A stretch of DNA of 64,000 bases from Anaerolineaceae bacterium (GTDB taxonomy: Bacteria; Chloroflexota; Anaerolineae; Anaerolineales; E44-bin32), in the NCBI GenBank assembly GCA_020350285.1, contig CP070708.1, positions 970,369 through 1,034,368 on the forward strand, given 5' to 3'. The position numbers and the translations under genes are program-made. Of this stretch, positions 5,498 through 60,872 are shown in pieces. Every line of letters begins with the position of its first letter. Positions within the stretch are counted from its first letter, which is position 1. The notes beneath the pieces were generated by a model. That model made no database searches. It had not been told where the DNA came from and saw only the letters and a list, made by a program, of their open reading frames with translations.

Positions 5498-5723
5498 TTC
5501 AAATTACGTTACATACACCTTGAGTTCGTTGATTTTACATACAATCCTCTATTAGTAAATATAACCCCACAACGCACACAGACTTTCTAAGGAGAGCCAT
5601 GTTTCGAGTGTTCTCACTATGAATTAATTTAGAACCATACAGGGTACAATTTGGGACGAAATGAGAGGACAAATGTCCACCGAAGTATTCAAATACGTCT
5701 CAGCATATCCATAGGGTTATTAC

Positions 5724-6671
5724 GTGGAAGATGTCCAGAAACTTGCAGATCGTCTGATTGCTAATATCGAGAAGGTGATCATCGGAAAGACCGAGGCCGT
5801 CCGATTGACCGTCCTTGGTCTACTCTGTCGAGGGCACATCCTTATCGAGGATGTACCAGGCACTGGCAAAACGATGCTCGCTAGAAGCCTCGCGCAATCG
5901 ATCGGTTGCACCTTCCGCCGTATCCAATTCACGCCCGATATGCTTCCTAGTGATATTACCGGTGTATCCATTTTTAATCAGAAATCTCGAGAGTTTGAAT
6001 TCCGCCCAGGTCCGATCATGGCCCAGATCGTACTTACGGATGAGATTAACCGAGCGACGCCAAAAACACAGTCAGCGCTGCTCGAAGCGATGGAAGAGCG
6101 ACAGGTCACAGTTGATGGTGTGACTTATCCTACACCTGAGCTGTTCATGGTTCTCGCGACTCAGAACACCATCGAATACGAAGGGACCTTTCCTTTGCCA
6201 GAGGCACAACTTGATCGTTTTCTCTTGAGAATTCACCTCGGTTACCCCGGCACGTTAAATGAGATTGAGATGATGCAGAGGCAGAAGCTTGGGCACCCCA
6301 TCCACGAATTGGAAAGTGAAATCGGTGTGGAGGATCTACTGGCTGCCCAATCAGCGATTCAGAAAATCACCCTCACAGATGAGATAGAGCGCTATATTGT
6401 CGATCTTGTTGAGGGAACTCGCGGTCATGATGAGGTATATCTCGGTGCCAGTCCGAGAGGAAGCTTAGCATTGTACCGCACTTCTCAAGCTCTGGCGGCT
6501 ATTATGGGTCGTGATTATGTCATCCCAGATGATGTGAAACAAATGGCTGTCCCAACCTTGGCTCATCGATTGGTCCTTGCTTCAGCCGCTAGGATTCAAG
6601 AGATTGATGCCAGAGATATTATTCAAGAATTGACTCGCAAAATTCCTATCCCAGGCGGTGAGGGAATTTGA
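5724..6671 (+). CDS. moxR: MoxR-family AAA+ ATPase
   Basis: GTG start. Motifs seen: [36 protein letters not shown] (Walker A), [30 protein letters not shown] (Walker B/sensor), and a C-terminal ASPRGSLAL lid. Confidence 0.9.
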
Positions 6672-6796
6672 TGTGTTTTATGAAGGGAGTGGTGAGGATC
6701 CTCACTGCTTCTATTTGGTCGATACCATGAAATAACGGATGTGTAGCTCCCTTGTTTGATGTCTTTATCTTGCCCAGCTATCAATCGGAGCGATAG

Positions 6797-8353
6797 ATGC
6801 AACAACGTTATCTGAACGTGACCGTATTCGCCGCAGGGATGACCACCCTTGCGATCGAATTGTCGGCTTCACGTTTGCTTGGAAACATTTTTGGGACGAG
6901 TAACATCGTATGGGCAAATATCATTGGCTTGATTCTGGTCTATCTGGCGGCAGGATATTTCATCGGTGGACGTTGGGCCGATCGTTCACCATATGCGGAT
7001 ACCTTTTACAGATTGATCGCGTGGGGAGCATTCACGGCTGGGTTGATCCCGATTGTGGCTAGGCCTGTACTACTGAACGCGGCGAGGGCCGTGGAACGCT
7101 TAGATTCAGCCGTCATGATTGGCTCATTTATTGTTGTTCTGATCCTCTTTAGCCTCCCCGTTACACTACTTGGTTGCGTTTCGCCTTTTGCCATCAGGCT
7201 AGCGATCAGCGACACGGAGCAAGCTGGCCGTGTGTCGGGACGGATCTATGCGCTTTCAACATTAGGTTCAATACTCGGCACTTTTCTCCCCGTGTTGTTG
7301 CTGATCCCCTGGATTGGTACCGCCCGAACTTTCCTCGTTTTCAGCTTTGGGCTTCTGGCTGTGGCTTTAATTGGATTGGGCATGGAGAGTTGGCGCTCAG
7401 CGGTTAAACAAGTGTGGATGCCGATCCTTCTAATCATCTTAGCAGCGATAGCCTTACCTGGACCTGTGAAAAATACCACCGGACTGATCTACGAGAAGGA
7501 ATCGGCCTATAACTATATTCAGGTTGTCGAAGAGAAGCCTGGAGGCATACGTTATCTTCTATTGAACGAAGGACAGGGGATTCACTCCGTTTACGCACCA
7601 GATTTGGAAGTTACCTACGGAACATGGGACTATTTCCTCGTTGCGCCTTTCTTTAACACACCTCCTGTCCCCCTGGAAAGCGTGGATCGACTTGGGCTGG
7701 TGGGTCTTGCCGCGGGAACGATCGCGAAACAATACACTCAAGTGTTCGGACCAGTCCCGATTGATGGATGGGAGATCGATCCGGATATTGTGGAGACTGG
7801 AAAGTTGTTGTTCTCAATGAACGAGCCGAACTTAAATGTGATCGTCGCCGATGGGCGCTGGGGACTTGCCCGTAGCACGGCTCGGTACAGTGTGATCGGC
7901 GTGGACGCTTATAGGTTACCTTACATACCATGGCACCTGACCACACAGGAATTTTTCCTTGAGGTTTATGACCATCTCGAATCTAATGGCGTGATGGTTA
8001 TAAATGTCGGTCGCACGCCAGATGATCGAAGATTGATCGAGGCGATGGTTGGCACAGTCGGATCGGTGTTCTCTACGGTCCATGTGGTTGATGTACCTAA
8101 TACATTTAACACCATCCTTTACGGTACTGTTCAACCAACAGACGCTGAGAGTTTAGTAGCGAATCATATCTTGCTACAGAATGAAGGTGCTCCGCTGGCA
8201 TTGTTGGATTCGATGAAGCGAGCGATTGATAATCTCCAACCAACACCAAAGTCTGATATCGTCTTCACGGATGATTGGGCTCCGGTTGAGACATTAACCA
8301 ACGCAATGGCGATACAGTTCATTCTCGGCGGGGAGTTGGATATCCTGCGCTAG
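6797..8353 (+). CDS. membrane-fused spermidine synthase-like (polyamine aminopropyltransferase-fold) protein
   Basis: An N-terminal multi-TM region of about 210 aa (LAIELSASRLLGNIFG...) is followed by a SAM-MTase/spermidine-synthase-like domain (YNYIQVVEE...RYLLLNEGQGIHS...LGLVGLAAGT...IGVDAYR). Confidence 0.75.
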   Translation: MQQRYLNVTVFAAGMTTLAIELSASRLLGNIFGTSNIVWANIIGLILVYLAAGYFIGGRWADRSPYADTFYRLIAWGAFTAGLIPIVARPVLLNAARAVERLDSAVMIGSFIVVLILFSLPVTLLGCVSPFAIRLAISDTEQAGRVSGRIYALSTLGSILGTFLPVLLLIPWIGTARTFLVFSFGLLAVALIGLGMESWRSAVKQVWMPILLIILAAIALPGPVKNTTGLIYEKESAYNYIQVVEEKPGGIRYLLLNEGQGIHSVYAPDLEVTYGTWDYFLVAPFFNTPPVPLESVDRLGLVGLAAGTIAKQYTQVFGPVPIDGWEIDPDIVETGKLLFSMNEPNLNVIVADGRWGLARSTARYSVIGVDAYRLPYIPWHLTTQEFFLEVYDHLESNGVMVINVGRTPDDRRLIEAMVGTVGSVFSTVHVVDVPNTFNTILYGTVQPTDAESLVANHILLQNEGAPLALLDSMKRAIDNLQPTPKSDIVFTDDWAPVETLTNAMAIQFILGGELDILR

Positions 8354-53059: not shown

Positions 53060-53425
53060 ATGGACCGTCATTTTGACGTTCCTGTAGATCCTCCGGTTTC
53101 GCCGGATTCTGTTCGCATTCGGTCATTTGATGTGGAACCATATCCGGACGGTCGTAGGTTAAAGTGCACTCTAGAGATTACGGATTCGAATAACTCTCCC
53201 GACGCTGAAATCGTTATTGAAGATCTCGAAGGTCAAACGGTCGCTAGTAGCAACATCATCGGTTTAGCAAACAGCACGGCGATATTTACTGTGCATTTAC
53301 GTGAACCTACTCAGGTCAAGAGTTACACAGCTAAAGTTTCGTTGACAGATCATGATGTGGGATTGGTGGATCAAAAATTAATACATTTTTCGATCCCACA
53401 TGCAACGACGGACGCGAAAGCGTGA
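53060..53425 (+). CDS. hypothetical small beta-rich protein (no family recognised)
   Basis: 121-aa ORF with alternating beta-strand-like segments. Its stop lies 7 nt before (or overlaps) the STAND gene start. No RBS is obvious. Confidence 0.5.
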   Translation: MDRHFDVPVDPPVSPDSVRIRSFDVEPYPDGRRLKCTLEITDSNNSPDAEIVIEDLEGQTVASSNIIGLANSTAIFTVHLREPTQVKSYTAKVSLTDHDVGLVDQKLIHFSIPHATTDAKA

Positions 53426-53432
53426 AGGCTTT

Positions 53433-56400
53433 ATGACAAGTCTTGACTCGGTGCTAAGGCACGCGGTAACGCCTCCTGCGTTTGACCAGACGAAGCTCAA
53501 CCGTGAGCGCCTTGTTGATATCATTCATGCAAATATCCCACGTAAATTGATAGTTATTGCTACACCAGCCGGGTACGGCAAAACGACCTTGTTGGCTAAT
53601 TTCAGCGCGCAGACAGAGCTCCCTGTTTGTTGGGTACGCATCACCGAGGCCGATCGTGATGTGATGCGTTTCGCCAATGTTTTAGCTGTCTCCCTTCAGA
53701 GAAGATTCCGTCGTTTAGGGGGGAAATTCGTTCTTGAGCGGTTATCTGATTCGTCTCCTCAAGCGTTAGCCCGTGCTTTTGCAGATGTTATCGATGCTAA
53801 TGTAAGCGAAACATTCGTTATTGCGCTTGACGATGTTCACTATATCAATCGATCGAAGGCTACCACGGCATTCATAGATGCATTTCTTGAGGTTCTACCA
53901 GAACAAGTGACCATTCTCGCTTCAGGTCGCGAGGTACTTGAAGTTTCATTGGCCAGGCTCATGGCTGAGGGTGGGTTGGCAGGTCTCGGACCGCAGGATA
54001 TGGCCCTTACAAGGGATGAACTTGCTGAGCTTGCCGAGATTCAAGTAGGAGTTGAGCTTTCCAGTCAAGAAACCAACCGGCTTTTAGAGGAAACCCGAGG
54101 TTGGATTACAGGAGTGGTGCTTTCAGGAAAGCTAACTGGTAGTGGGCTGAGCGCTCTCGTTCAAGATCCGCGCCCGATGGTTTATGAATATCTTGCTTCT
54201 GTGGTGTTGAATCGTCAGCCCGATGATCTACGTCGTTTCATGCTCGACTCCTGTGTGTTCCCGGTAATGACGGCTGAGGGATGCAATTACGTCTTAAAGC
54301 AGGAACAAACCATCCGCTTCTTGAGACGTTTGGTCCGTGGCGGCATGTTTGTTACAGCGACCGATGAGACTCCTAGAATATATGAGTATCATCCTCAGTT
54401 CCGTCAATTTCTACTCGAATTACTTAAAAGCGCTGATCGAGGCAGATATAAGCGCCTCCTTGTGAGAGCTGCCAATTATCTCGCTGATCACGGATCTCCC
54501 GAGTATGCTGTCGATTTGTATTCTGAAGCGGGCGCCTTCGCGCGCGCAGCCGCTCTGGCTGATAGACGTGCAGAGGAGATGCATCTTAGCGGAAGATGGA
54601 TAACGTTAGAATCCTGGGCTCAGCGACTCGAGGAAAGCAAAGCCTTAGCGCCTAAAGTTTTTCTCTACCTAGCGGCGAGTTACACTGAGCAGGGGGACCT
54701 CGAGGCGGCAGAGTCAACATTGCAGCGCAGTCGTGAAATGCTTAAGCCGAGCGCGGCAAAATCGATTCAAGCTTATGTTGAGATCTTGCGAGGCCACATT
54801 GCTTATCGCCGTGGTCAATATGATGAGGTCCTCAAGGCAGCTGATGATGCGGAACGGTTGCTAGGTTCCCGAGGGAGTCGACAACGAAAATCCAACTGCT
54901 ATCGTCTGCGGGCGTTAGCGACCCTCCGAAAAGGTGACCTTCAATCAGCTGAGACTTTTGCGGAAGAGGCTTTAAATCTCCTCAACCAGACAGATCTGAA
55001 GAGTGCTCAAGCGTATGCCTTGGTTGATTTATCGAATATCCAACTCGATCTTGGCAAAGCAGCTGAGGCGCATGCATCTTCTCTCAAGGCGCACGGAATA
55101 CTCCTCGAGGTAGGCGGACCCATCAAGTTAGCCGTATCTTTCAATAACTTGGCATACGATGCCCATCTCCAGGGCAGGTACGAGGAATCTTTGGAACTTT
55201 ATAACGAGGGGCTGAAGTATGCCAGACAAGCTGCTAGTCCAGCACGTGAAACCAACATCCTTTTTGGCCAGGCCGATCTTTTCGCTGATCTTGATCTAGC
55301 GCTGCAAGCAGCGGAGCTTTACGGGCAGGCTTTAAACATAGCAGCAAGGTTGGATAACCTTAGCCTAACCCGTTATGGTTGTATTCAAACGAGTATGTTG
55401 CACCGAAGGAGAGGGGGTATTGTACTTGCCCATGAATGGTTGGGGCGCGCAATGGAGCTAGAGAAGAAGTCAGTCGCTCCGCCTGCTGTTACGATCCAGC
55501 GTTGTGCATTGGAGGCAATGGCTAAACCGGAGCAAGCCCAGAACACCCTCTCTAGATTATTGCGGAAAGAAAAACGGCTCGATGCGTCTGAAAAAACCTT
55601 AGCCCTCTTCTTCACAGCTCGAGCAGCGATGGAGGCTGGTGACCTTGATGATACACAGGCTGCATTGGAGCAAACCCTCGACTGGAGTGGGGGAAACGGC
55701 ACAGAACAATTCGTGGCCGGGGAATTAGCTTTCGACACGGATTTCCGAGAATTTGCCAGACTCAGGCTCGGTAATCACCCTGTACTTTCGGTAATCTTAC
55801 GTCGGATCGAGACCATGCGTGGGATTGCTCAGCTTTATCAGGAGGCACCAGAGGATGCAGATGCCGCAGTCCAAGTTGCTTTATTTGCGCTTGGTGAGGC
55901 CAGTATCCATTGTCAAGACAGTCGACTATCGGATCTTAAACCTCTGGCTAAAGAGGTGCTCTTCCACCTAGCTGATCATCAACGGGTGGAGCGCGATATT
56001 TTATTGGAGACATTTTGGCCGCACCATCCACCAGGCCGTCAAGTCGCCAACCTGCACACCACGGTCTATAACCTACGGCGTGAACTTGGACGGGATGTCA
56101 TTCTCCACGAAGGTCCGGTTTACTGCCTCAATCCCGAACTACCGGTTGAGTATGATGTCATCCGATTTGAACGTGCGGCTTCGATCGCAGAGGGATTACC
56201 GCCCGGCGATCCACGCAAGATGTTCGCTCTCACTGAGGCCATTAACTCCTATGGTGGTCCATTTCTGGCCGAATTTGCGTCCGATTGGATCATGGAGCGC
56301 CGCCGTGACCTCGAGATGCGTTATCTAGACCTCTTAGCGCAGCATGCACAAGAAGCTCTGGTGCGCGATCAGCCTTTGCGTGCAGTAAATACACTTCGTC

Positions 56401-56585
56401 AAGCCCTGCAAATTGATCCTTATCGTGATGATACGAATTTATATTTTCTCGAAGCCCTGGGTCGTCTTGGAAGGCGGAGTGAAGTCGTTTCACATTACCA
56501 ACGGTATATTCGCTTGCTTGCTGATGAGCTTGGCCTTGATCCACCTGAACCCGTGAGGGAGCTTTACGCACGCTTGATCGACTGA
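53433..56585 (+). CDS. STAND-class regulator: MalT-like NTPase + TPR array + C-terminal winged-helix/BTAD (SARP) module
   Basis: Walker A ATPAGYGKTTLLANF and Walker B FVIALDDVHYI are MalT-like. A long helical-repeat middle follows. The C-terminus carries KEVLFHLADHQRVERDILLETFWP...NLHTTVYNLRRELG (OmpR/SARP wHTH) and a BTAD (...YGGPFLAEFASDWI...ALQIDPYRDDTNLYFLEALGRLGRRSEVVSHYQRYIRLLADELGLDP). An alternative ATG is at 53400. Confidence 0.85.
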   Translation: MTSLDSVLRHAVTPPAFDQTKLNRERLVDIIHANIPRKLIVIATPAGYGKTTLLANFSAQTELPVCWVRITEADRDVMRFANVLAVSLQRRFRRLGGKFVLERLSDSSPQALARAFADVIDANVSETFVIALDDVHYINRSKATTAFIDAFLEVLPEQVTILASGREVLEVSLARLMAEGGLAGLGPQDMALTRDELAELAEIQVGVELSSQETNRLLEETRGWITGVVLSGKLTGSGLSALVQDPRPMVYEYLASVVLNRQPDDLRRFMLDSCVFPVMTAEGCNYVLKQEQTIRFLRRLVRGGMFVTATDETPRIYEYHPQFRQFLLELLKSADRGRYKRLLVRAANYLADHGSPEYAVDLYSEAGAFARAAALADRRAEEMHLSGRWITLESWAQRLEESKALAPKVFLYLAASYTEQGDLEAAESTLQRSREMLKPSAAKSIQAYVEILRGHIAYRRGQYDEVLKAADDAERLLGSRGSRQRKSNCYRLRALATLRKGDLQSAETFAEEALNLLNQTDLKSAQAYALVDLSNIQLDLGKAAEAHASSLKAHGILLEVGGPIKLAVSFNNLAYDAHLQGRYEESLELYNEGLKYARQAASPARETNILFGQADLFADLDLALQAAELYGQALNIAARLDNLSLTRYGCIQTSMLHRRRGGIVLAHEWLGRAMELEKKSVAPPAVTIQRCALEAMAKPEQAQNTLSRLLRKEKRLDASEKTLALFFTARAAMEAGDLDDTQAALEQTLDWSGGNGTEQFVAGELAFDTDFREFARLRLGNHPVLSVILRRIETMRGIAQLYQEAPEDADAAVQVALFALGEASIHCQDSRLSDLKPLAKEVLFHLADHQRVERDILLETFWPHHPPGRQVANLHTTVYNLRRELGRDVILHEGPVYCLNPELPVEYDVIRFERAASIAEGLPPGDPRKMFALTEAINSYGGPFLAEFASDWIMERRRDLEMRYLDLLAQHAQEALVRDQPLRAVNTLRQALQIDPYRDDTNLYFLEALGRLGRRSEVVSHYQRYIRLLADELGLDPPEPVRELYARLID

Positions 56586-56777
56586 AATCCTTAGTAAATA
56601 TCTCCATTGTGGTCGTAGAGAATGGAGAAATCGAACATAAATTGCTGTTCAATCTATGAAGACATCAGTTTCAGGGTATGTAATCGAAAGTTCGAAGTTA
56701 ACCGAATTTCATTGAGAATCCGTTGAGATTCTTTCAGTATCCTAAATACGAGAGGGAAGTAAGTAAAGGAGGTTGCC

Positions 56778-56822
56778 ATGGTCAGCACCCGCTGCCCTAG
56801 GGATGGTGCACTAATAGACTAA
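56778..56822 (+). CDS. candidate 14-codon mini-ORF (MVSTRCPRDGALID)
   Basis: A near-perfect SD (AAAGGAGG) lies 5 nt upstream of the ATG. The candidate promoter TTGAGA-N17-CAGTAT is at 56712-56740, and an intrinsic terminator lies 45 nt downstream. It is too short to test by composition. Confidence 0.25.
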   Translation: MVSTRCPRDGALID

Positions 56823-56867
56823 CAATAGTGTGCATCATCTTGGCAACTTAAATTTTGAAACACGCCT

Positions 56868-56899
56868 GGCAGCGAGGCGCATTGCCTGCTGCCTTTTTT
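56868..56899 (+). terminator. intrinsic terminator between the mini-ORF and the 96-aa gene
   Basis: GGCAGCG(A)GGC-GCATT-GCCTGCTGCC is followed by T6. Confidence 0.65.
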
Positions 56900-56940
56900 G
56901 TTTGAAAAATGGTGGAAATCTGTTGTAAGGAGAAACAAAC

Positions 56941-57231
56941 ATGAGTATGGAAACCCTCAATAAACTCGTAGCAAGATCGATTATCGACCCAGGTGTGGTC
57001 CAGGCATTTACTGCTGGACGGATTGGAGATGTGATCTCCGAACTTGATTTCTCTGCGGAATTGTGTGACAGTCTTTCGGACATCGAAGCAGAGTCGTGGG
57101 CGGAATATGCCGTCCTTGCATATCGTTATGTGAAGGCTGCCGAAGAGCGTGAGGTTCGCATCCAATTGCCTTCCCCGCTCGAAGGTTTGTTGCCTGATGA
57201 GAAGCGAGCTGAGGACGAACAAGCGGCATGA
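56941..57231 (+). CDS. hypothetical small helical acidic protein
   Basis: GGAG RBS 8 nt upstream. 96 aa. ATGA overlap with the downstream gene. N-terminus METLNKLVARSIIDPGVVQAF... No confident family. Confidence 0.6.
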   Translation: MSMETLNKLVARSIIDPGVVQAFTAGRIGDVISELDFSAELCDSLSDIEAESWAEYAVLAYRYVKAAEEREVRIQLPSPLEGLLPDEKRAEDEQAA

Positions 57232-57740
57232 TCCCTATCACAAGAGAAGAGCGCCAGTGGTTCTTACGTAGCTTGGCGCAGGGCCTGATCGACTATCTCG
57301 GGGTCCAGGAGCCACCGGTGCCAGTCGAAGACCTTCTCAAGAACCCGCCGCCGTTGTATGACTCTGACTTCGGCGTAGTAGATATGTACTCCAATCTCTG
57401 GGACGCTACTTTCGCACGACCGCCAACTCAGAGAGGCAGCATCTTTGTTCGCATCGATCTGGATCCGGAAGAACGACGGTTTGCTCTCGCAAGGGAAACC
57501 TTGAGCGCGCTCATCACGAGTAAACATGGTCGTGCAATAGGCTTGTTCGATCTCCTGCTGCCACACTTGAGGGAATCAGCGGAGTACTTCGCAAGTCACC
57601 TCCTTGCCCCAGCCACGATGCTGAAAGCCTACCACGAGCAAGGAGGGCGTGCACGGGGCATGTCAAAAACCTTCGGCATACCTCCTTTTGTCGCCTTGCA
57701 GCGCTGGGAAGATTTCCACTCTATTGACCATACTCCTTGA
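57228..57740 (+). CDS. ImmA/IrrE (COG2856, M78)-like domain protein with degenerate zinc motif
   Basis: EERRFALARETLSAL aligns with the family block RRF(T/S)LAHELGHxL, so HExxH becomes RETLS (nt 57492-57506). The downstream E..FA..LL.P block is kept (SAEYFASHLLAP), as is the FG(I/V)...A..R tail (FGIPPFVALQRW). Confidence 0.6.
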   Translation: MIPITREERQWFLRSLAQGLIDYLGVQEPPVPVEDLLKNPPPLYDSDFGVVDMYSNLWDATFARPPTQRGSIFVRIDLDPEERRFALARETLSALITSKHGRAIGLFDLLLPHLRESAEYFASHLLAPATMLKAYHEQGGRARGMSKTFGIPPFVALQRWEDFHSIDHTP

Positions 57741-57761
57741 ACCATAGATGCAAATGATAAT

Positions 57762-57789
57762 AAGCCGGCTCTTGGGCCGGCTTATTTCC
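57762..57789 (+). terminator. intrinsic terminator after the ImmA-like gene
   Basis: AAGCCGGC-TCTTGG-GCCGGCTT is followed by ATTTCC. Confidence 0.6.
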
Positions 57790-57897
57790 GTTAACTTGTA
57801 CTCAATCCTCCACACGATTCAGACCTGGCACCTTCCTTGCACCACATGACGGAAATATCGACAGCATGTATAATCTCAGCTTTGAGGCTAACTGCAC

Positions 57898-59784
57898 GTG
57901 AAGGGAAATGGGGTAAGATCCCAAACTCGCCGAAATCTCCCCAAACGGTATTGGCGCGTCTGGGTATTTCGTTTTTTCTTAGTGATAATCTTGATGAGTA
58001 TCGTTGCCTTAGGGTGGGCTGGGATACGAATGAGGACGCAACTTGATCCGACACCGCTTGATCCCACGCTACTAGCATTAGCAACTGCTCTTCAATTTAC
58101 CCCTACTGCAACCACCAGTCCTACTGCAGCGCCCCCATCAGCTACCTTCACAATCGCCCCCACTCGAAGTTCCTCACTTGGAACGCTGGTCTACGCCGCT
58201 CGAAATGACGGATACAGCCACATCTGGGCGTATACCCCAGGGGATTCTGCTCCCGTTCAGATCACAAATGGTGCATGGGATGACAGGGACCCAGCTGTCA
58301 GTCCAGATGGCAGATACATTGCGTTCTCTTCAAATCGGAAAGGAGCGTGGGACCTCTACCTTTTGGAGCTGAGAACAGGGGGATTGCGACGGTTAACGGA
58401 TACTTTAGGATTTGAAGGAAATCCTACTTGGTCTCACGATGGCCTTTGGTTGGCTTGTGAAGTTTACTTCGAAGGTGATTTTAATATCTGGATCATCCCC
58501 ATAAATGGTGGCCTTTCACCCATTCAGCTAACAAGCCACCCTGCGATAGATCTCTCCCCGTCTTGGGATCATTCAGGAGATGGCCGGCGTATCGCATTTG
58601 TCTCGTACCGGGATGGAAGTCCTGATATCTTTATTGCCGATTTGGATAACCCGGATAACCGTTTCTTTAACCTTACAAGAACCCCCGTAATCGCCGAGAA
58701 AAATCCAGCCTTCAGCCCAGACGGCTCCCGGGTCGCATACTCAATGTACTCGCATGGTCTTGATTTGATCCTCATCCAAGATTTAAATGACCTGTCTCAA
58801 TTGCCCGAGACCGTCAGCGAAGCGCGAACTGTCGCATGGTCGCCTGATGGGAGGTTCATTGCGACAGTATTATCCAACTCAATTTCGACCCACCTTCAGG
58901 TGAACGCTTTAGGTGACGATGGGACAAATTCGGTTGGATACCCTCCAATAAGCGGTATCCAGAGTCTTGATTGGACGGAGCATGGTCTTCCAGGTGAAGT
59001 GTATGCGCGAGGATCGAACAACAGTGTCTCCACGCCTCTTTTCGTCATCAATGCCATTCCTGAGGATTCAGGACGTTTGTCACTGGTCGAACTTACCGAT
59101 ATCGTTGCGCCCATCCCTGCCCTCTCGGATGCAGTCGATGAAGCGTTTAATGCGCTTCGCATAAGAACAATAGCAGAACTGGGATGGGATTTCCTTGGTA
59201 GCTTAGAAAATGCATTTGTTGGGATCAATGATCCGCTTCCTCCTGGCTATGCATATAATGATTGGCTTTATACAGGCAGAGCCTTCGCCTTTCAACAGAC
59301 CACAGTCCAGGCGGGTTGGGTGGAGCTTGTTCGTGAGGATTATGGCGGCAAGACGTATTGGCGTGTTTTTGTGCGTACCGTGGTTCAGGATGGTTCACAA
59401 GGAGAACCACTGCGCGCGTTACCGTGGGATTTCAGCACAAGGCATACCGGCGATCCGTTAGCGTATGACCAGGGGGGATCCCTGCGTGAAAGTATCCCGG
59501 AAGGGTATTATGTTGATTTCACGCAACTCGCAGGGGATTATGGTTTCGACCGCTTGCCTGCTTTAACCGATTGGCGAACCTTCTATCCGAGCGCAAGGTT
59601 TAATGAATTTGTACGGACCGATGGCCTGGATTGGACCTCAGCGATGCTTGAACTCTATCCAGCGTCAGCTATCGTGACCCCCACACCTTTCCAGACACCG
59701 ACCCCAACTCCGACACGCACACCACGACCGACAGCTACGCCGTGGTGGTGGCGATGGCGAACGCCTACGCCCAGCTCGCCATGA
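57898..59784 (+). CDS. membrane-anchored TolB-like beta-propeller (PD40 repeats) protein with unassigned C-terminal domain and Pro/Thr/Trp-rich tail
   Basis: TM helix VWVFRFFLVIILMSIVALGW. At least 5 PD40-type repeats (DPAVSPDGRYIAFSS, NPTWSHDG, SPSWDHSGDGRRIAFVS, NPAFSPDGSRVAYS, VAWSPDGRFIA). Tail TPTPTPTRTPRPTATPWWWRWRTPTPSSP. A TATAAT box is at 57869-57874. Confidence 0.8.
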   Translation: MKGNGVRSQTRRNLPKRYWRVWVFRFFLVIILMSIVALGWAGIRMRTQLDPTPLDPTLLALATALQFTPTATTSPTAAPPSATFTIAPTRSSSLGTLVYAARNDGYSHIWAYTPGDSAPVQITNGAWDDRDPAVSPDGRYIAFSSNRKGAWDLYLLELRTGGLRRLTDTLGFEGNPTWSHDGLWLACEVYFEGDFNIWIIPINGGLSPIQLTSHPAIDLSPSWDHSGDGRRIAFVSYRDGSPDIFIADLDNPDNRFFNLTRTPVIAEKNPAFSPDGSRVAYSMYSHGLDLILIQDLNDLSQLPETVSEARTVAWSPDGRFIATVLSNSISTHLQVNALGDDGTNSVGYPPISGIQSLDWTEHGLPGEVYARGSNNSVSTPLFVINAIPEDSGRLSLVELTDIVAPIPALSDAVDEAFNALRIRTIAELGWDFLGSLENAFVGINDPLPPGYAYNDWLYTGRAFAFQQTTVQAGWVELVREDYGGKTYWRVFVRTVVQDGSQGEPLRALPWDFSTRHTGDPLAYDQGGSLRESIPEGYYVDFTQLAGDYGFDRLPALTDWRTFYPSARFNEFVRTDGLDWTSAMLELYPASAIVTPTPFQTPTPTPTRTPRPTATPWWWRWRTPTPSSP

Positions 59785-60872
59785 AAAGCGTCAATATCTA
59801 CACATCAGCCAGGATATTCATCAGTGGTCTTCTCCTTGCTGCCTGTGGACTAACGGGGGATGAGGCGCCACAGAATGGGATGCTCCCCATCGAAAGTCCG
59901 ACACCGGAGCTGACGAATGTTAGCAGTGAAGAAATCACCCTGATGGAAAGTGGGGCTTCCCCAAACATGGTCGTAACGCCTGTTTCAGTGGAACTCCCTT
60001 CACCCATCCCTATTCCCACCTCAGATTGGAGGCCACCTCCTTATCCCGCGCCATGGGCGATCCGTCCTCAGGATCATTTCTATTTTGATCGACCCATTCC
60101 CTCAGGAGAGGTGAACTGGCCAAACCCGAGATACCGATATGGAAGCACTTTATTTGGAGAGGAGAATATCCATACTGGAGTTGACTTGGGCGCTGACCGC
60201 GGCACTTTGGTTCTAGCAGCTGGACCAGGCGAAGTGGTATGGACTGGTTATGGCCTTTACCGAGGCATTTACGATGAAACCGACCCCTATGGTCTTGCTG
60301 TAGCCATAGAGCATGATTATGGCTACCAGGGTATTCAACTGCATACCGTCTATGCTCATATGCAATCCATTCGAGTATGGGATGGACAGCGTGTTCAGTC
60401 AGGAGAGATTCTCGGAACTGTGGGCGATACAGGTCATGCCTCTGGACCTCATTTGCATTTTGAGATCAGGTTAGGGGATAACCGATATTGGAGCACCCGC
60501 AATCCCGAGCTTTGGATCGCGCCGCCCATTGGCTGGGGTGTACTAGCAGGGCGAGTGGAGGATACCTTTGGTAATTTGCTCAAGGAGTACCTTGTGCAAA
60601 TCTACTCGATTAAGTCCGGTGAACGCTGGGATGTATGGACCTATGCAGAAGGTACCATCCATTCGGATGATTTTTATCGGGAAAATTTTGTGATCAGTGA
60701 TTTACCTTCAGGTCCATACGACATCCGGGTCGATTTCGCTGGTAGGTCCTTCTCAGCTCAACTTTACCTTTATCCAGGCCAAACGAATTTCATCGTCTTC
60801 CGTGGGCGAAATGGGTTTAATGTGGAACCCACGCCTACACCAGTAGATCTCACCAATCCTCCAGATTTATAA
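59781..60872 (+). CDS. M23-family (LytM-type) peptidoglycan metalloendopeptidase lipoprotein
   Basis: ATGA overlap with the upstream stop. Lipobox LLLAAC. HTGVDLGA (HxxxD) and GHASGPHLHFE (HxH). The C-terminus is a beta-sandwich resembling a carboxypeptidase-regulatory-like domain. Confidence 0.9.
   Translation: MKSVNIYTSARIFISGLLLAACGLTGDEAPQNGMLPIESPTPELTNVSSEEITLMESGASPNMVVTPVSVELPSPIPIPTSDWRPPPYPAPWAIRPQDHFYFDRPIPSGEVNWPNPRYRYGSTLFGEENIHTGVDLGADRGTLVLAAGPGEVVWTGYGLYRGIYDETDPYGLAVAIEHDYGYQGIQLHTVYAHMQSIRVWDGQRVQSGEILGTVGDTGHASGPHLHFEIRLGDNRYWSTRNPELWIAPPIGWGVLAGRVEDTFGNLLKEYLVQIYSIKSGERWDVWTYAEGTIHSDDFYRENFVISDLPSGPYDIRVDFAGRSFSAQLYLYPGQTNFIVFRGRNGFNVEPTPTPVDLTNPPDL

Follow-up and report, generated by a model that had tools for sequence, protein, structure and literature searches.

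What can a metallopeptidase fold do once its metal ligands have been replaced, and with which genes does it act? The question is raised by two overlapping genes at 56941-57740 of a 64,000-nucleotide stretch of DNA (the window) from an Anaerolineaceae bacterium (GenBank assembly GCA_020350285.1, contig CP070708.1, positions 970,369 to 1,034,368 of the forward strand). An earlier sequence-only reading had described the pair as a small acidic protein and an ImmA/IrrE-like protein with a lost HExxH motif, and had suggested a sensor/antagonist or toxin-antitoxin-like two-component module of undescribed function. Our best reading is that the pair would be the distal half of a conserved regulatory cassette of the Chloroflexota (Anaerolineae and relatives). 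The conserved unit holds at least four coding parts, namely a STAND-SARP regulator, a peptide gene, an NHLP-clan protein and a pseudo-M78 protein, together with a SARP-box promoter, and the term "two-component" is therefore too narrow for it.

Results

The two overlapping genes are conserved as a pair

The first gene (56941..57231, + strand, ATG start) encodes an acidic protein of 96 residues, with an Os1348/NHLP-clan-like five-helix domain (residues 1-72) and a conserved tail that is predicted to be disordered. The second gene (57228..57740, + strand, ATG start) encodes a protein of 170 residues, which is assigned to the M78 (ImmA/IrrE) fold and appears to lack the zinc ligands of that fold. 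As had been claimed, the two open reading frames (ORFs) are joined by the 4-nt overlap ATGA.

We retrieved 77 loci from species-representative genomes. The small gene lies directly 5' of the M78-like gene in all of them, and the 4-nt overlap is present in 75/76. A large protein database holds >300 homologs of the 170-residue protein and 81 of the 96-residue protein, and the hosts are nearly all metagenome-assembled genomes of Anaerolineales/Anaerolineae. The cassette occurs once per genome, at the same position among tRNA-synthetase and peptidase genes in ~75 species, and the neighborhood is syntenic throughout the window's family (M20 peptidase ... ProRS). Conservation of the pair across 77 species-level genomes is more than chance. 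No XRE gene is present in the conserved neighborhood. These data support the view that the 96-residue gene encodes a probably obligate, translationally coupled, non-XRE partner of the M78-like protein.

Two contigs with an Anaerolineales-type locus, L021 (JAIWHF010000014.1) and L080 (MAXT01000419.1), have been assigned to bins of a Methanosarcinales archaeon and of Desulfuromonadales, respectively. Both are probably mis-binned.

The 170-residue protein belongs to a clade of apparently zinc-less M78 domains

The 170-residue protein had been proposed to carry the ImmA/IrrE scaffold, and it does match PF06114 (Peptidase_M78, "IrrE N-terminal-like") in Pfam, with an E-value of 1.2e-6 and 28.7 bits, above the curated gathering score of 22. 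The match covers residues 66-160 of the protein and positions 24-122 of the 123 in the profile. NCBIfam gave no match for either the 170-residue or the 96-residue protein.

The motif column was fixed by aligning the protein with distant relatives and with three canonical M78 proteins (LAHELGHAILH, YAHELGHVML and IGHEIGHLIL). The residues A-R-E-T-L-S fall exactly on A-H-E-x-x-H of the canonical proteins, confirming that HExxH is replaced by RETLS (encoded at 57492-57506), with the Glu kept and both His gone. The third ligand, the Glu of E..A[ND].FA..LLMP, aligns with R115 (57570-57572), and this column reads R/K/W across relatives. The third-ligand block had previously been placed at E119 of SAEYFA, which is not the column on which the canonical Glu falls; the uncertainty is one residue, because the acidic E116 follows R115 and a shift of the alignment by one position is possible. 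As aligned, all three canonical zinc ligands appear to be replaced, two of them by basic residues (Arg/Lys).

The altered motif is uniform among homologs. Nearly all of the 120 best homologs read RE[TMLIV]L[SC] in the motif column, one reads LEMLS, and HExxH is found nowhere in any of the 120. In an alignment of 24 sequences (mean column identity 72%), R89, E90 and the WDATFAR block do not vary, and position 116 holds either E or D throughout. Against the two closest genomes, the ratio of nonsynonymous to synonymous substitution (dN/dS) was 0.05-0.06 for the 170-residue gene and 0.11-0.15 for the 96-residue gene. The uniform motif and the low dN/dS suggest that the protein is a fixed pseudo-enzyme. 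They also rule out a decaying pseudogene: the sequence-only reading had allowed for an isolated, decaying copy in which the pair is not conserved, and instead the motif is fixed and the pair is kept.

When 1.84 billion representative proteins were searched exhaustively with a profile, no more than 75 relatives came up at E<=1e-3. HExxH is missing from all of them except the three weakest matches, which are canonical M78 proteins. More distant members of the clade have also lost the Glu (ARA, ASG, ARW, ARL), and what they retain is PPVPVE near the N-terminus, A-R at the first-His column and FAR.LLxP. Because these members lose the Glu yet keep A-R and FAR.LLxP, the retained Glu is probably not the conserved functional core of the clade. 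By these alignments, the 170-residue protein belongs to a diversified clade of zinc-less M78 domains. The earlier suggestion of a probably non-catalytic binding module is supported by what looks like a fixed, selected loss of metal ligands in an M78-fold protein, and catalysis is presumably absent. Judged by its residues, the protein fails the functional definition of ImmA/IrrE; since it lacks HExxH, the third ligand and an XRE substrate, the database name "ImmA/IrrE family metallo-endopeptidase" is misleading.

The fold was tested on a homolog in place of the window protein. A Foldseek search with the AlphaFold2 model of P0242, a natural fusion described below, returned PprI (8sln) and PrpR (6cz6) with a probability of 1.0 and E ~1e-3. 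The IrrE-like domain of PrpR from M. tuberculosis is also without the HExxH residues, and it binds coenzyme A (CoA) (PMC6765138). This domain, which binds a ligand without HExxH, sets a precedent for a non-catalytic M78 sensor.

The zinc-less M78 domain is found in other architectures as well. Among P0208, P0249, P0265 and P0274, it precedes a DDE_5 transposase domain (perhaps through a read-through call) or follows either a multi-pass membrane N-terminus or an RsmD-like methyltransferase. In P0243/P0246/P0247/P0254, it is followed by a conserved C-terminal extension (FSLEEPW..RFL...YQDVRYML..W).

The 96-residue partner resembles NHLP-clan domains

The partner had been described as acidic and helical, without an obvious helix-turn-helix (HTH), and this description stands: the isoelectric point (pI) is 4.2, helices are predicted over residues 1-72, and no Pfam, NCBIfam or HTH family is matched. 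AlphaFold2 models residues 1-72 as a five-helix bundle (predicted local distance difference test (pLDDT) >89), followed by a disordered tail, with an overall pLDDT of 82. The tail is conserved (LPSPLEGLLP...A; family form LPSPxEGL...QVA), and in the alignment of 96-residue homologs (A2) it contains neither Cys nor a Gly-Gly cleavage motif.

Two distant relatives of the M78-like protein, P0242 and P0254, have an extra N-terminal domain that resembles the 96-residue protein, and a search with P0242 found ~26 full-length natural fusions of an NHLP-like domain with a pseudo-M78 domain. The N-domains of the fusions, the free small ORFs that adjoin them and the 73-residue partner of another distant clade match NF038399 ("Os1348 family NHLP clan protein") and PF14407 (Frankia_peptide) under the curated cut-offs. 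NF038399 is matched by 23/23 members of A8, an alignment of sister-clade NHLP-like sequences (best E 4e-11, mostly under the 40-bit cut-off). When A2 was compared with A8 by hhalign, the two aligned with Prob 96.6% and E 5e-10 over 72 collinear columns from residue 1. The helix boundaries predicted for the window protein (2-15, 17-24, 28-33, 39-46, 53-72) coincide with those predicted for a fusion N-domain (2-15, 17-24, 28-32, 39-47, 53-66). By profile comparison, then, the 96-residue partner is a divergent Os1348/NHLP-clan (LigA-like) domain at the superfamily level.

The ECOD "LigA-like" group comprises LigA, nitrile hydratase alpha, Nif11, Frankia_peptide and the TglI N-domain, and is found both in precursors of ribosomally synthesized and post-translationally modified peptides (RiPPs) and in recognition proteins (PMC12353581). 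Os1348 itself is a structured, dimeric protein of 85 residues, whose gene adjoins that of a HExxH-type protein (PMC7726476). The 96-residue partner, as read from its alignment, fails the features of an NHLP precursor, and no maturase or C39/ABC gene lies beside the cassette in any context examined.

The existence of natural fusions supports a partnership of the pseudo-M78 and NHLP-like proteins. The AlphaFold2 model of a natural fusion has a pLDDT of 87.7 and a predicted template modelling score (pTM) of 0.85, and its 23-residue linker is disordered. Such a pTM in spite of the disordered linker suggests that the two domains pack together in the fusion, and we infer that the 96- and 170-residue proteins form a physical complex. 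Sequence searches of the PDB with alignments A1 and A2 and with one free NHLP-like ORF returned nothing relevant.

The free NHLP-like small proteins of the fusion clade often stand two in tandem (L084:302-508 and 644-850; L088:6401-6607 and 6669-6875), and further ones are found at L090:6742-6960 and in L092 upstream of 6721. The ORF call L092:6560-6721 is probably truncated, and an upstream GTG start gives back the N-terminal helix. These paralogs end in short Cys-containing tails (..FAGALCQPGFCAA, ..FAGVLCQDYSKQA) and are closer to classical precursor peptides than the 96-residue protein of the window is.

A STAND-SARP gene and a candidate SARP-type promoter precede the pair

The gene upstream of the pair (53400..56585, + strand) encodes a STAND regulator of 1061 residues, which has an N-terminal P-loop NTPase, a MalT-like winged helix with a TPR sensor, and a C-terminal SARP domain (OmpR-type winged HTH plus BTAD). 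Pfam finds BTAD (5e-20), AAA_22/AAA_16, TPR_MalT and TPR_12, and a weak Trans_reg_C. The C-terminal 227 residues match the SARP domain of AfsR (8hvr, E 7e-12) and EmbR (E 7e-7). Because the SARP match sits at the C-terminus, the protein is a "large SARP" with reversed domain order.

That the pair adjoins a STAND/SARP regulator had been noted before, and we find that this linkage recurs. Wherever the contig is long enough to show it (~54 loci), a STAND homolog precedes the pair in the same orientation, with a median spacer of 368 nt between it and the small gene. The order of a STAND gene (WHD_MalT, TPR, BTAD), small ORFs and an M78-like gene is found again in three diverged groups whose other neighbors are entirely different: L001/L046, the P0223 clade (L085-L087), and the fusion clade with its unfused relatives (L088-L092). 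In L001/L046 (contig CAWDZQ010000003.1), gene calling splits the STAND gene beside the pair into two ORFs (688 + 355 residues), and a second STAND paralog of 997 residues, with no BTAD match, lies just upstream.

The spacer carries a candidate SARP box. Two heptamer direct repeats, ATTGAGAatccGTTGAGA (ATTGAGA atcc GTTGAGA), stand in an 11-bp register at 56711..56728 (+ strand), and a -10-like hexamer, TATCCT (56738..56743, + strand; consensus G-TAnnnT), follows 8-9 nt past the second repeat, the gap in the window being 9 nt. The consensus is GTTnAGAATCnGTTGAGA-N8-GTAnnnT. The repeats were found in 52/52 distinct spacers with <=6/18 mismatches, whereas random control windows mostly differ from GTTnAGAATCnGTTGAGA at 7-9 positions, and the -10 element stands at the same offset in 51/52 spacers. 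The repeat site is unique within the 64-kb window, which contains no other SARP box. Distant clades have analogous repeats, with a period of 11 or 12.

In SARP promoters, the direct repeats are 11 or 22 bp apart and the 3' repeat lies 8 bp from the -10 (PMC10936776). The predicted site at 56711-56743 fits this geometry, and, to judge from their motifs, the regulator and the promoter depart from the SARP paradigm only in domain order and phylum. We suggest that the STAND protein activates this promoter, and that the transcription unit most likely starts near 56750.

The leader contains a micro-ORF and a hairpin

A Shine-Dalgarno (SD) sequence, AAGGAGG (56766-56772, + strand), precedes a micro-ORF (56778-56822, + strand) that encodes MVSTRCPRDGALID. 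An ORF of 9-19 codons behind GGAGG(TTGCC) is found in ~50/55 spacers, and the peptides share R-C-P-x-D-G-G or related Gly-rich tails (e.g. MARCPMVGGGGT, MHRCPKTGGGSS, MKTRCPRDMGLSGG and MARDPVGGR). Their conserved residues vary synonymously (R = CGC or CGT; P and G each use all four codons), suggesting translation of the micro-ORF and selection on the peptide or on the act of translating it. The spacer of L062 has two tandem micro-ORF copies of MKSPRDQGVGSM, and the peptide of L003/L004 has a threefold internal repeat (MESRCPRVGGLGNG RTPRVGGLGNG RTPRVGGLGNG). This duplication and these internal repeats suggest that the peptide itself matters, beyond the act of translation.

Peptide genes also stand first in the operons of the diverged groups. 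In L085, the first gene encodes a Gly-rich peptide of 29 residues (5521-5610). The gene that comes first behind the repeats in the fusion clade specifies a peptide of 53-60 residues, with a basic and hydrophobic, signal- or transmembrane-like N-terminus and a Gly-rich C-terminus, LCPVDGGGSSST or SLCGIDGGGSGA (L088:6227-6388, L084:119-289, L092:6300-6482, and L090 with an internal start within 6311-6667). The likeness of these low-complexity Gly-rich tails to the micro-ORF peptide is suggestive, not proven.

Downstream of the micro-ORF, the segment UUGGCAACUU (56840..56849, + strand) is predicted to pair with the SD-proximal AGGUUGCCA (56770-56778), giving a stem that encloses the micro-ORF. 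The minimum-free-energy fold of 56760-56905 has -55.9 kcal/mol (z -3.9), and GGCAAC is kept in close relatives. Next comes the leader hairpin (56858..56903, + strand), with a lower stem AAACA/UGUUU, an upper stem GGCAGCGAGGCG..GCCUGCUGCC (56868-56893) and a U-run at 56894-56899; its fold has -21.4 kcal/mol (z -3.3). A covariance model of this hairpin gave one match per locus, always at the same place, and none elsewhere in 740 kb, with E down to 6e-19. It gave no match in the distant and sister clades, so the hairpin is confined to the window's family, one clade of which has a weak U-tract. An alignment by MAFFT/RNAalifold recovered only the invariant outer stem. What we claim for the leader hairpin is conservation of its sequence and position; its structure is predicted.

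In ten related loci, the leader hairpin ends 25-35 nt before the ATG of the small gene. This distance leaves no room for a promoter, so the promoter must lie upstream and the hairpin must be transcribed as part of the leader. The sequence-only reading had taken the pair as its own transcription unit, bounded by intrinsic terminators. Both hairpins exist and the 3' one is a plausible terminator, but the 5' one lies inside the leader, downstream of the conserved promoter and the micro-ORF. The 3' hairpin, AUAAGCCGGCUC uugg GCCGGCUUAU followed by UUUCC (57759..57786, + strand), has a fold of -22.3 kcal/mol (z -3.9), and was missed by a simple terminator scan because its T-run is short.

The leader thus has a short ORF with its own SD and, 45 nt later, a hairpin with a U-run (56858-56903), which is the layout of a leader-peptide attenuator. 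The 5' arm of the hairpin, GGGCAGCG, has complementary segments in CGCUGCCC of the micro-ORF and in the GUUGCC that follows the SD; the minimum-free-energy fold keeps the terminator. Ribosome-dependent attenuation at the leader hairpin is possible. No Rfam family was found in the leader, and the only two matches within 56300-58100 lie elsewhere and are at chance level (E 0.3).

The leader hairpin also looks like a hot-spot for assembly breaks. Several metagenome contigs have their first base within it (loci L032, L035, L045 and L074), and many more break off at most ~100-500 nt before the small gene. A dispersed repeat was rejected as the cause, the motif occurring once in the window and once per locus.

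Discussion

A proposed regulatory operon

Taken together, these data lead us to propose a SARP-activated operon that encodes a non-catalytic, heterodimeric binding module and a peptide, and that acts in signalling or feedback. We rate this full proposal as slightly better than an even bet. The STAND NTPase with its TPR sensor would respond to some signal, and the SARP domain would activate the promoter just 3' of its own gene through the two repeats, which are spaced by one helical turn and stand 8-9 bp away from the -10. The transcript would first encode the tiny Gly-rich peptide MVSTRCPRDGALID, and, in the window's family only, the hairpin with its U-run would probably set or gate read-through by ribosome-dependent attenuation. 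The NHLP-clan helical protein and the zinc-less M78 protein would then arise from coupled translation in a fixed ratio, and would assemble stoichiometrically into a complex without proteolytic activity.

In zincins, a substrate lines up next to the sheet like one more strand, over the HExxH helix. The complex may still take up a peptide or protein in what was once the substrate groove, which the invariant WDATFAR strand and the R/E-substituted helix would make up. Its ligand could be the conserved, disordered LPSPxEGL tail of the partner, the micro-peptide or a segment of the STAND protein. The most likely role of the complex would be to modulate the STAND regulator, as feedback, or to hold or present the co-encoded peptide. 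With neither an enzyme nor a transporter nor a second DNA-binding protein in the cassette, feedback or peptide handling would be the most economical role; both the ligand and the feedback role are what we infer.

A more specific version, which we hold only tentatively, is a peptide-centred switch. The Gly-rich peptide would be the ligand of the STAND-TPR-SARP receptor, and the NHLP-like/pseudo-M78 heterodimer would be a non-catalytic peptide-binding chaperone or antagonist that arose from a protease-substrate pair. The whole would make up a self-contained feedback or quorum-like circuit, widespread in uncultured Anaerolineae. As part of the same tentative scheme, the peptide would be cytoplasmic in the window's family and would carry a signal-like N-terminus in the sister clade.

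Several points weigh against the operon as we propose it. The 96-residue protein of the window matches no NHLP model directly, even at E<=10, and its link to that clan is transitive. E90 is invariant and position 116 is acidic in all sequences aligned, so some residual or altered chemistry is possible. The repeat period is 12 and not 11 in three distant loci. Covariation in the leader hairpin is not significant, because the outer stem (GGCAG/CUGCC) is sequence-invariant, and the promoter, the transcription start and attenuation are all read from sequence. The cassette encodes no output function, and feedback on the regulator is a guess among several.

Alternative explanations

The alternative that survives best is a minimal RiPP-like pathway, in which the Gly-rich peptide and/or the NHLP-clan protein would be the precursor, the M78-like protein a leader-binding scaffold or processing factor, and the SARP protein the pathway activator, as in actinomycete clusters. 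The best-known role of the NHLP clan is that of a leader domain in RiPP precursors (PMC12353581), and the founding Os1348 cluster pairs an NHLP protein with a HExxH-type protein (PMC7726476). The tandem, Cys-tailed NHLP-like paralogs of the fusion clade (..FAGALCQPGFCAA) would suit precursors, as would the micro-ORF duplicated in L062 and internally repeated in L003, and the first gene of the fusion clade combines a signal-like N-terminus with a C-terminal LCPVDGGGSS motif like that of the micro-ORF. However, no YcaO, radical-SAM, lanthipeptide, SagB, GNAT or ATP-grasp enzyme and no C39/ABC exporter is conserved beside the cassette in the contexts examined. The tail of the 96-residue protein is conserved, free of Cys and without a Gly-Gly cleavage motif, the M78-like protein has no metal ligands, and the locus lies among housekeeping genes and looks vertically inherited. 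We consider a RiPP-like pathway unlikely.

The 170-residue protein could still be a hydrolase, acting through Glu90, the acidic residue at 116 or other invariant residues (e.g. D59), or holding a metal through other ligands. The invariance of E90 and of WDATFAR and the constant E/D at 116 would fit such an activity, and very strong purifying selection is compatible with catalysis. Yet none of the three canonical ligands is kept, and the Arg/Lys at two of these positions would repel a metal ion; the distant members of the clade lose the Glu too (ARA, ASG, ARW, ARL); and the nearest structural relative, PrpR, is a non-protease. A hydrolase is improbable on these grounds.

It is also conceivable that the STAND-SARP linkage is mere conserved synteny, with the pair both expressed and acting independently and the spacer elements belonging to the 3' end of the STAND gene. 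Since the whole neighborhood of the window's family (M20 peptidase ... ProRS) is conserved, co-occurrence inside this family alone is weak evidence for a functional link. However, the trio recurs in three diverged clades in which all other neighbors differ. The STAND genes of L092 and L085 have their own terminator right after the stop codon, with the repeats, the -10 and the peptide gene coming after it, and the repeats obey SARP promoter geometry. We regard mere synteny as quite improbable.

Finally, a toxin-antitoxin-like or anti-phage module of the COG2856-Xre type, as the sequence-only reading had suggested, is very improbable: COG2856/XRE pairs are predicted elsewhere to be toxin-antitoxin-like systems and the genes here are small, overlapping and co-transcribed, but there is no XRE partner and no toxin-type domain, the locus is single per genome at the same housekeeping position in ~75 species, and the suggestion is unsupported because PADLOC gives no match for either protein and no homolog occurs in 50,697 phage or 72,556 plasmid records, searches that rule out a defence or mobile-element origin.

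Comparison with known systems

The closest switches are ImmA/ImmR of ICEBs1 and IrrE(PprI)/DdrO, in which an M78 metalloprotease acts with an XRE repressor. The cassette shares with them the fold, PF06114, a small adjacent co-transcribed partner and a regulatory context. It differs from them in that the three zinc ligands are replaced, the partner is an acidic, helical NHLP-clan protein instead of an HTH repressor, the regulator is a STAND-SARP activator and not a cleavable repressor, and the locus belongs to the chromosomal core and not to a mobile element. The best structural match of the modelled homolog is PrpR/RamB of Mycobacterium (XRE HTH + IrrE-like + GAF-like; PDB 6cyy, 6cz6), whose IrrE-like domain likewise lacks HExxH and serves as a ligand-binding sensor (PMC6765138). 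PrpR is one multi-domain DNA-binding protein with a [4Fe-4S] cluster and a CoA pocket shared with the GAF-like domain, whereas in the cassette a stand-alone domain of 170 residues is accompanied by an NHLP-like partner, either separate or fused to its N-terminus, and by no DNA-binding domain.

In the Os1348 cluster of Pseudomonas sp. Os17 (NF038399, PF14407, ECOD "LigA-like domain"), too, a small helical NHLP protein adjoins a protein of the HExxH superfamily. The small protein of that cluster is structured, a dimer in the crystal, and not a floppy leader (PMC7726476). Unlike the cassette, that cluster further encodes GNAT and SagB-like enzymes and an efflux system, and HExxH is intact in its metalloprotein; the 96-residue protein of the window, moreover, falls below every NHLP model and is joined to the clan by profile-profile comparison only. 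AfsR (SARP-NOD-TPR) is built from the same modules, SARP, STAND ATPase and TPR, and its target repeats also lie one helical turn apart and end ~8 bp from the -10. Here, in contrast, the SARP domain is at the C-terminus, so that the order is reversed, the host belongs to the Chloroflexota and not the Actinomycetota, and the apparent target is the peptide/NHLP/pseudo-M78 operon instead of a biosynthetic gene or afsS.

In the microcin C operon (mccA and its terminator) and in classical leader-peptide attenuators, a very short ORF with its own SD is followed by a U-run hairpin and then by the longer genes of the operon. The leader of the cassette has the same layout of short ORF, SD and U-run hairpin. 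Unlike in the mccA operon, no maturation enzyme follows, the hairpin is missing from sister clades, and antiterminator pairing is only suggested. There is also a likeness to RRNPP-type peptide signalling, in that a TPR transcription factor adjoins a small peptide gene that it probably controls, and in that the N-terminus of the fusion-clade peptide is signal-like. In the cassette, however, a SARP-bearing STAND ATPase would be the receptor, the peptide of the window's family has no export signal, and no Opp-type importer or processing protease is linked.

Non-catalytic M78 domains are already known from PrpR/RamB. The cassette is well supported as a conserved module, and in the searchable literature we found no description of a stand-alone zinc-less M78 protein with an NHLP-clan partner and a peptide gene under a STAND-SARP regulator. 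In this respect, the module appears to be undescribed, as had been supposed. It would clearly exemplify, in bacteria, how strong selection has made a binding module out of a protease, along with the partner bound by that module, and it joins three much-studied building blocks, M78/ImmA-IrrE, NHLP "leader" and SARP/STAND, in an arrangement that we did not find described. Two cautions on annotation follow from it: the name "ImmA/IrrE family metallo-endopeptidase" is wrong for this zinc-less clade, and an NHLP-clan protein is not necessarily the precursor of a natural product. The whole circuit, with its promoter, regulator, peptide and effector pair, fits into 4.4 kb and could therefore be rebuilt in a heterologous host. 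A rebuilt circuit would give access to signalling in a phylum with few cultured members and would serve as a model for the inputs of STAND-TPR-SARP sensors.

Flanking features of the window

Antisense ORFs of 100-124 residues (- strand; 56290-56652, 56848-57222 and 57264-57566) lie opposite the 3' end of the STAND gene and the pair. They are mechanical ORFs opposite conserved coding sequence, and nothing suggests that they are genes. On the 3' side of the cassette, a gene for a PD40/Tricorn-like (PD40/TolB-like) beta-propeller with a hydrophobic N-terminus (57898-59784) overlaps a Peptidase_M23 gene (59742-60872) by 43 nt. The PD40 gene has its own promoter-like site at 57846-57874, and the PD40 and M23 genes are found 3' of the cassette in most, not all, related genomes.

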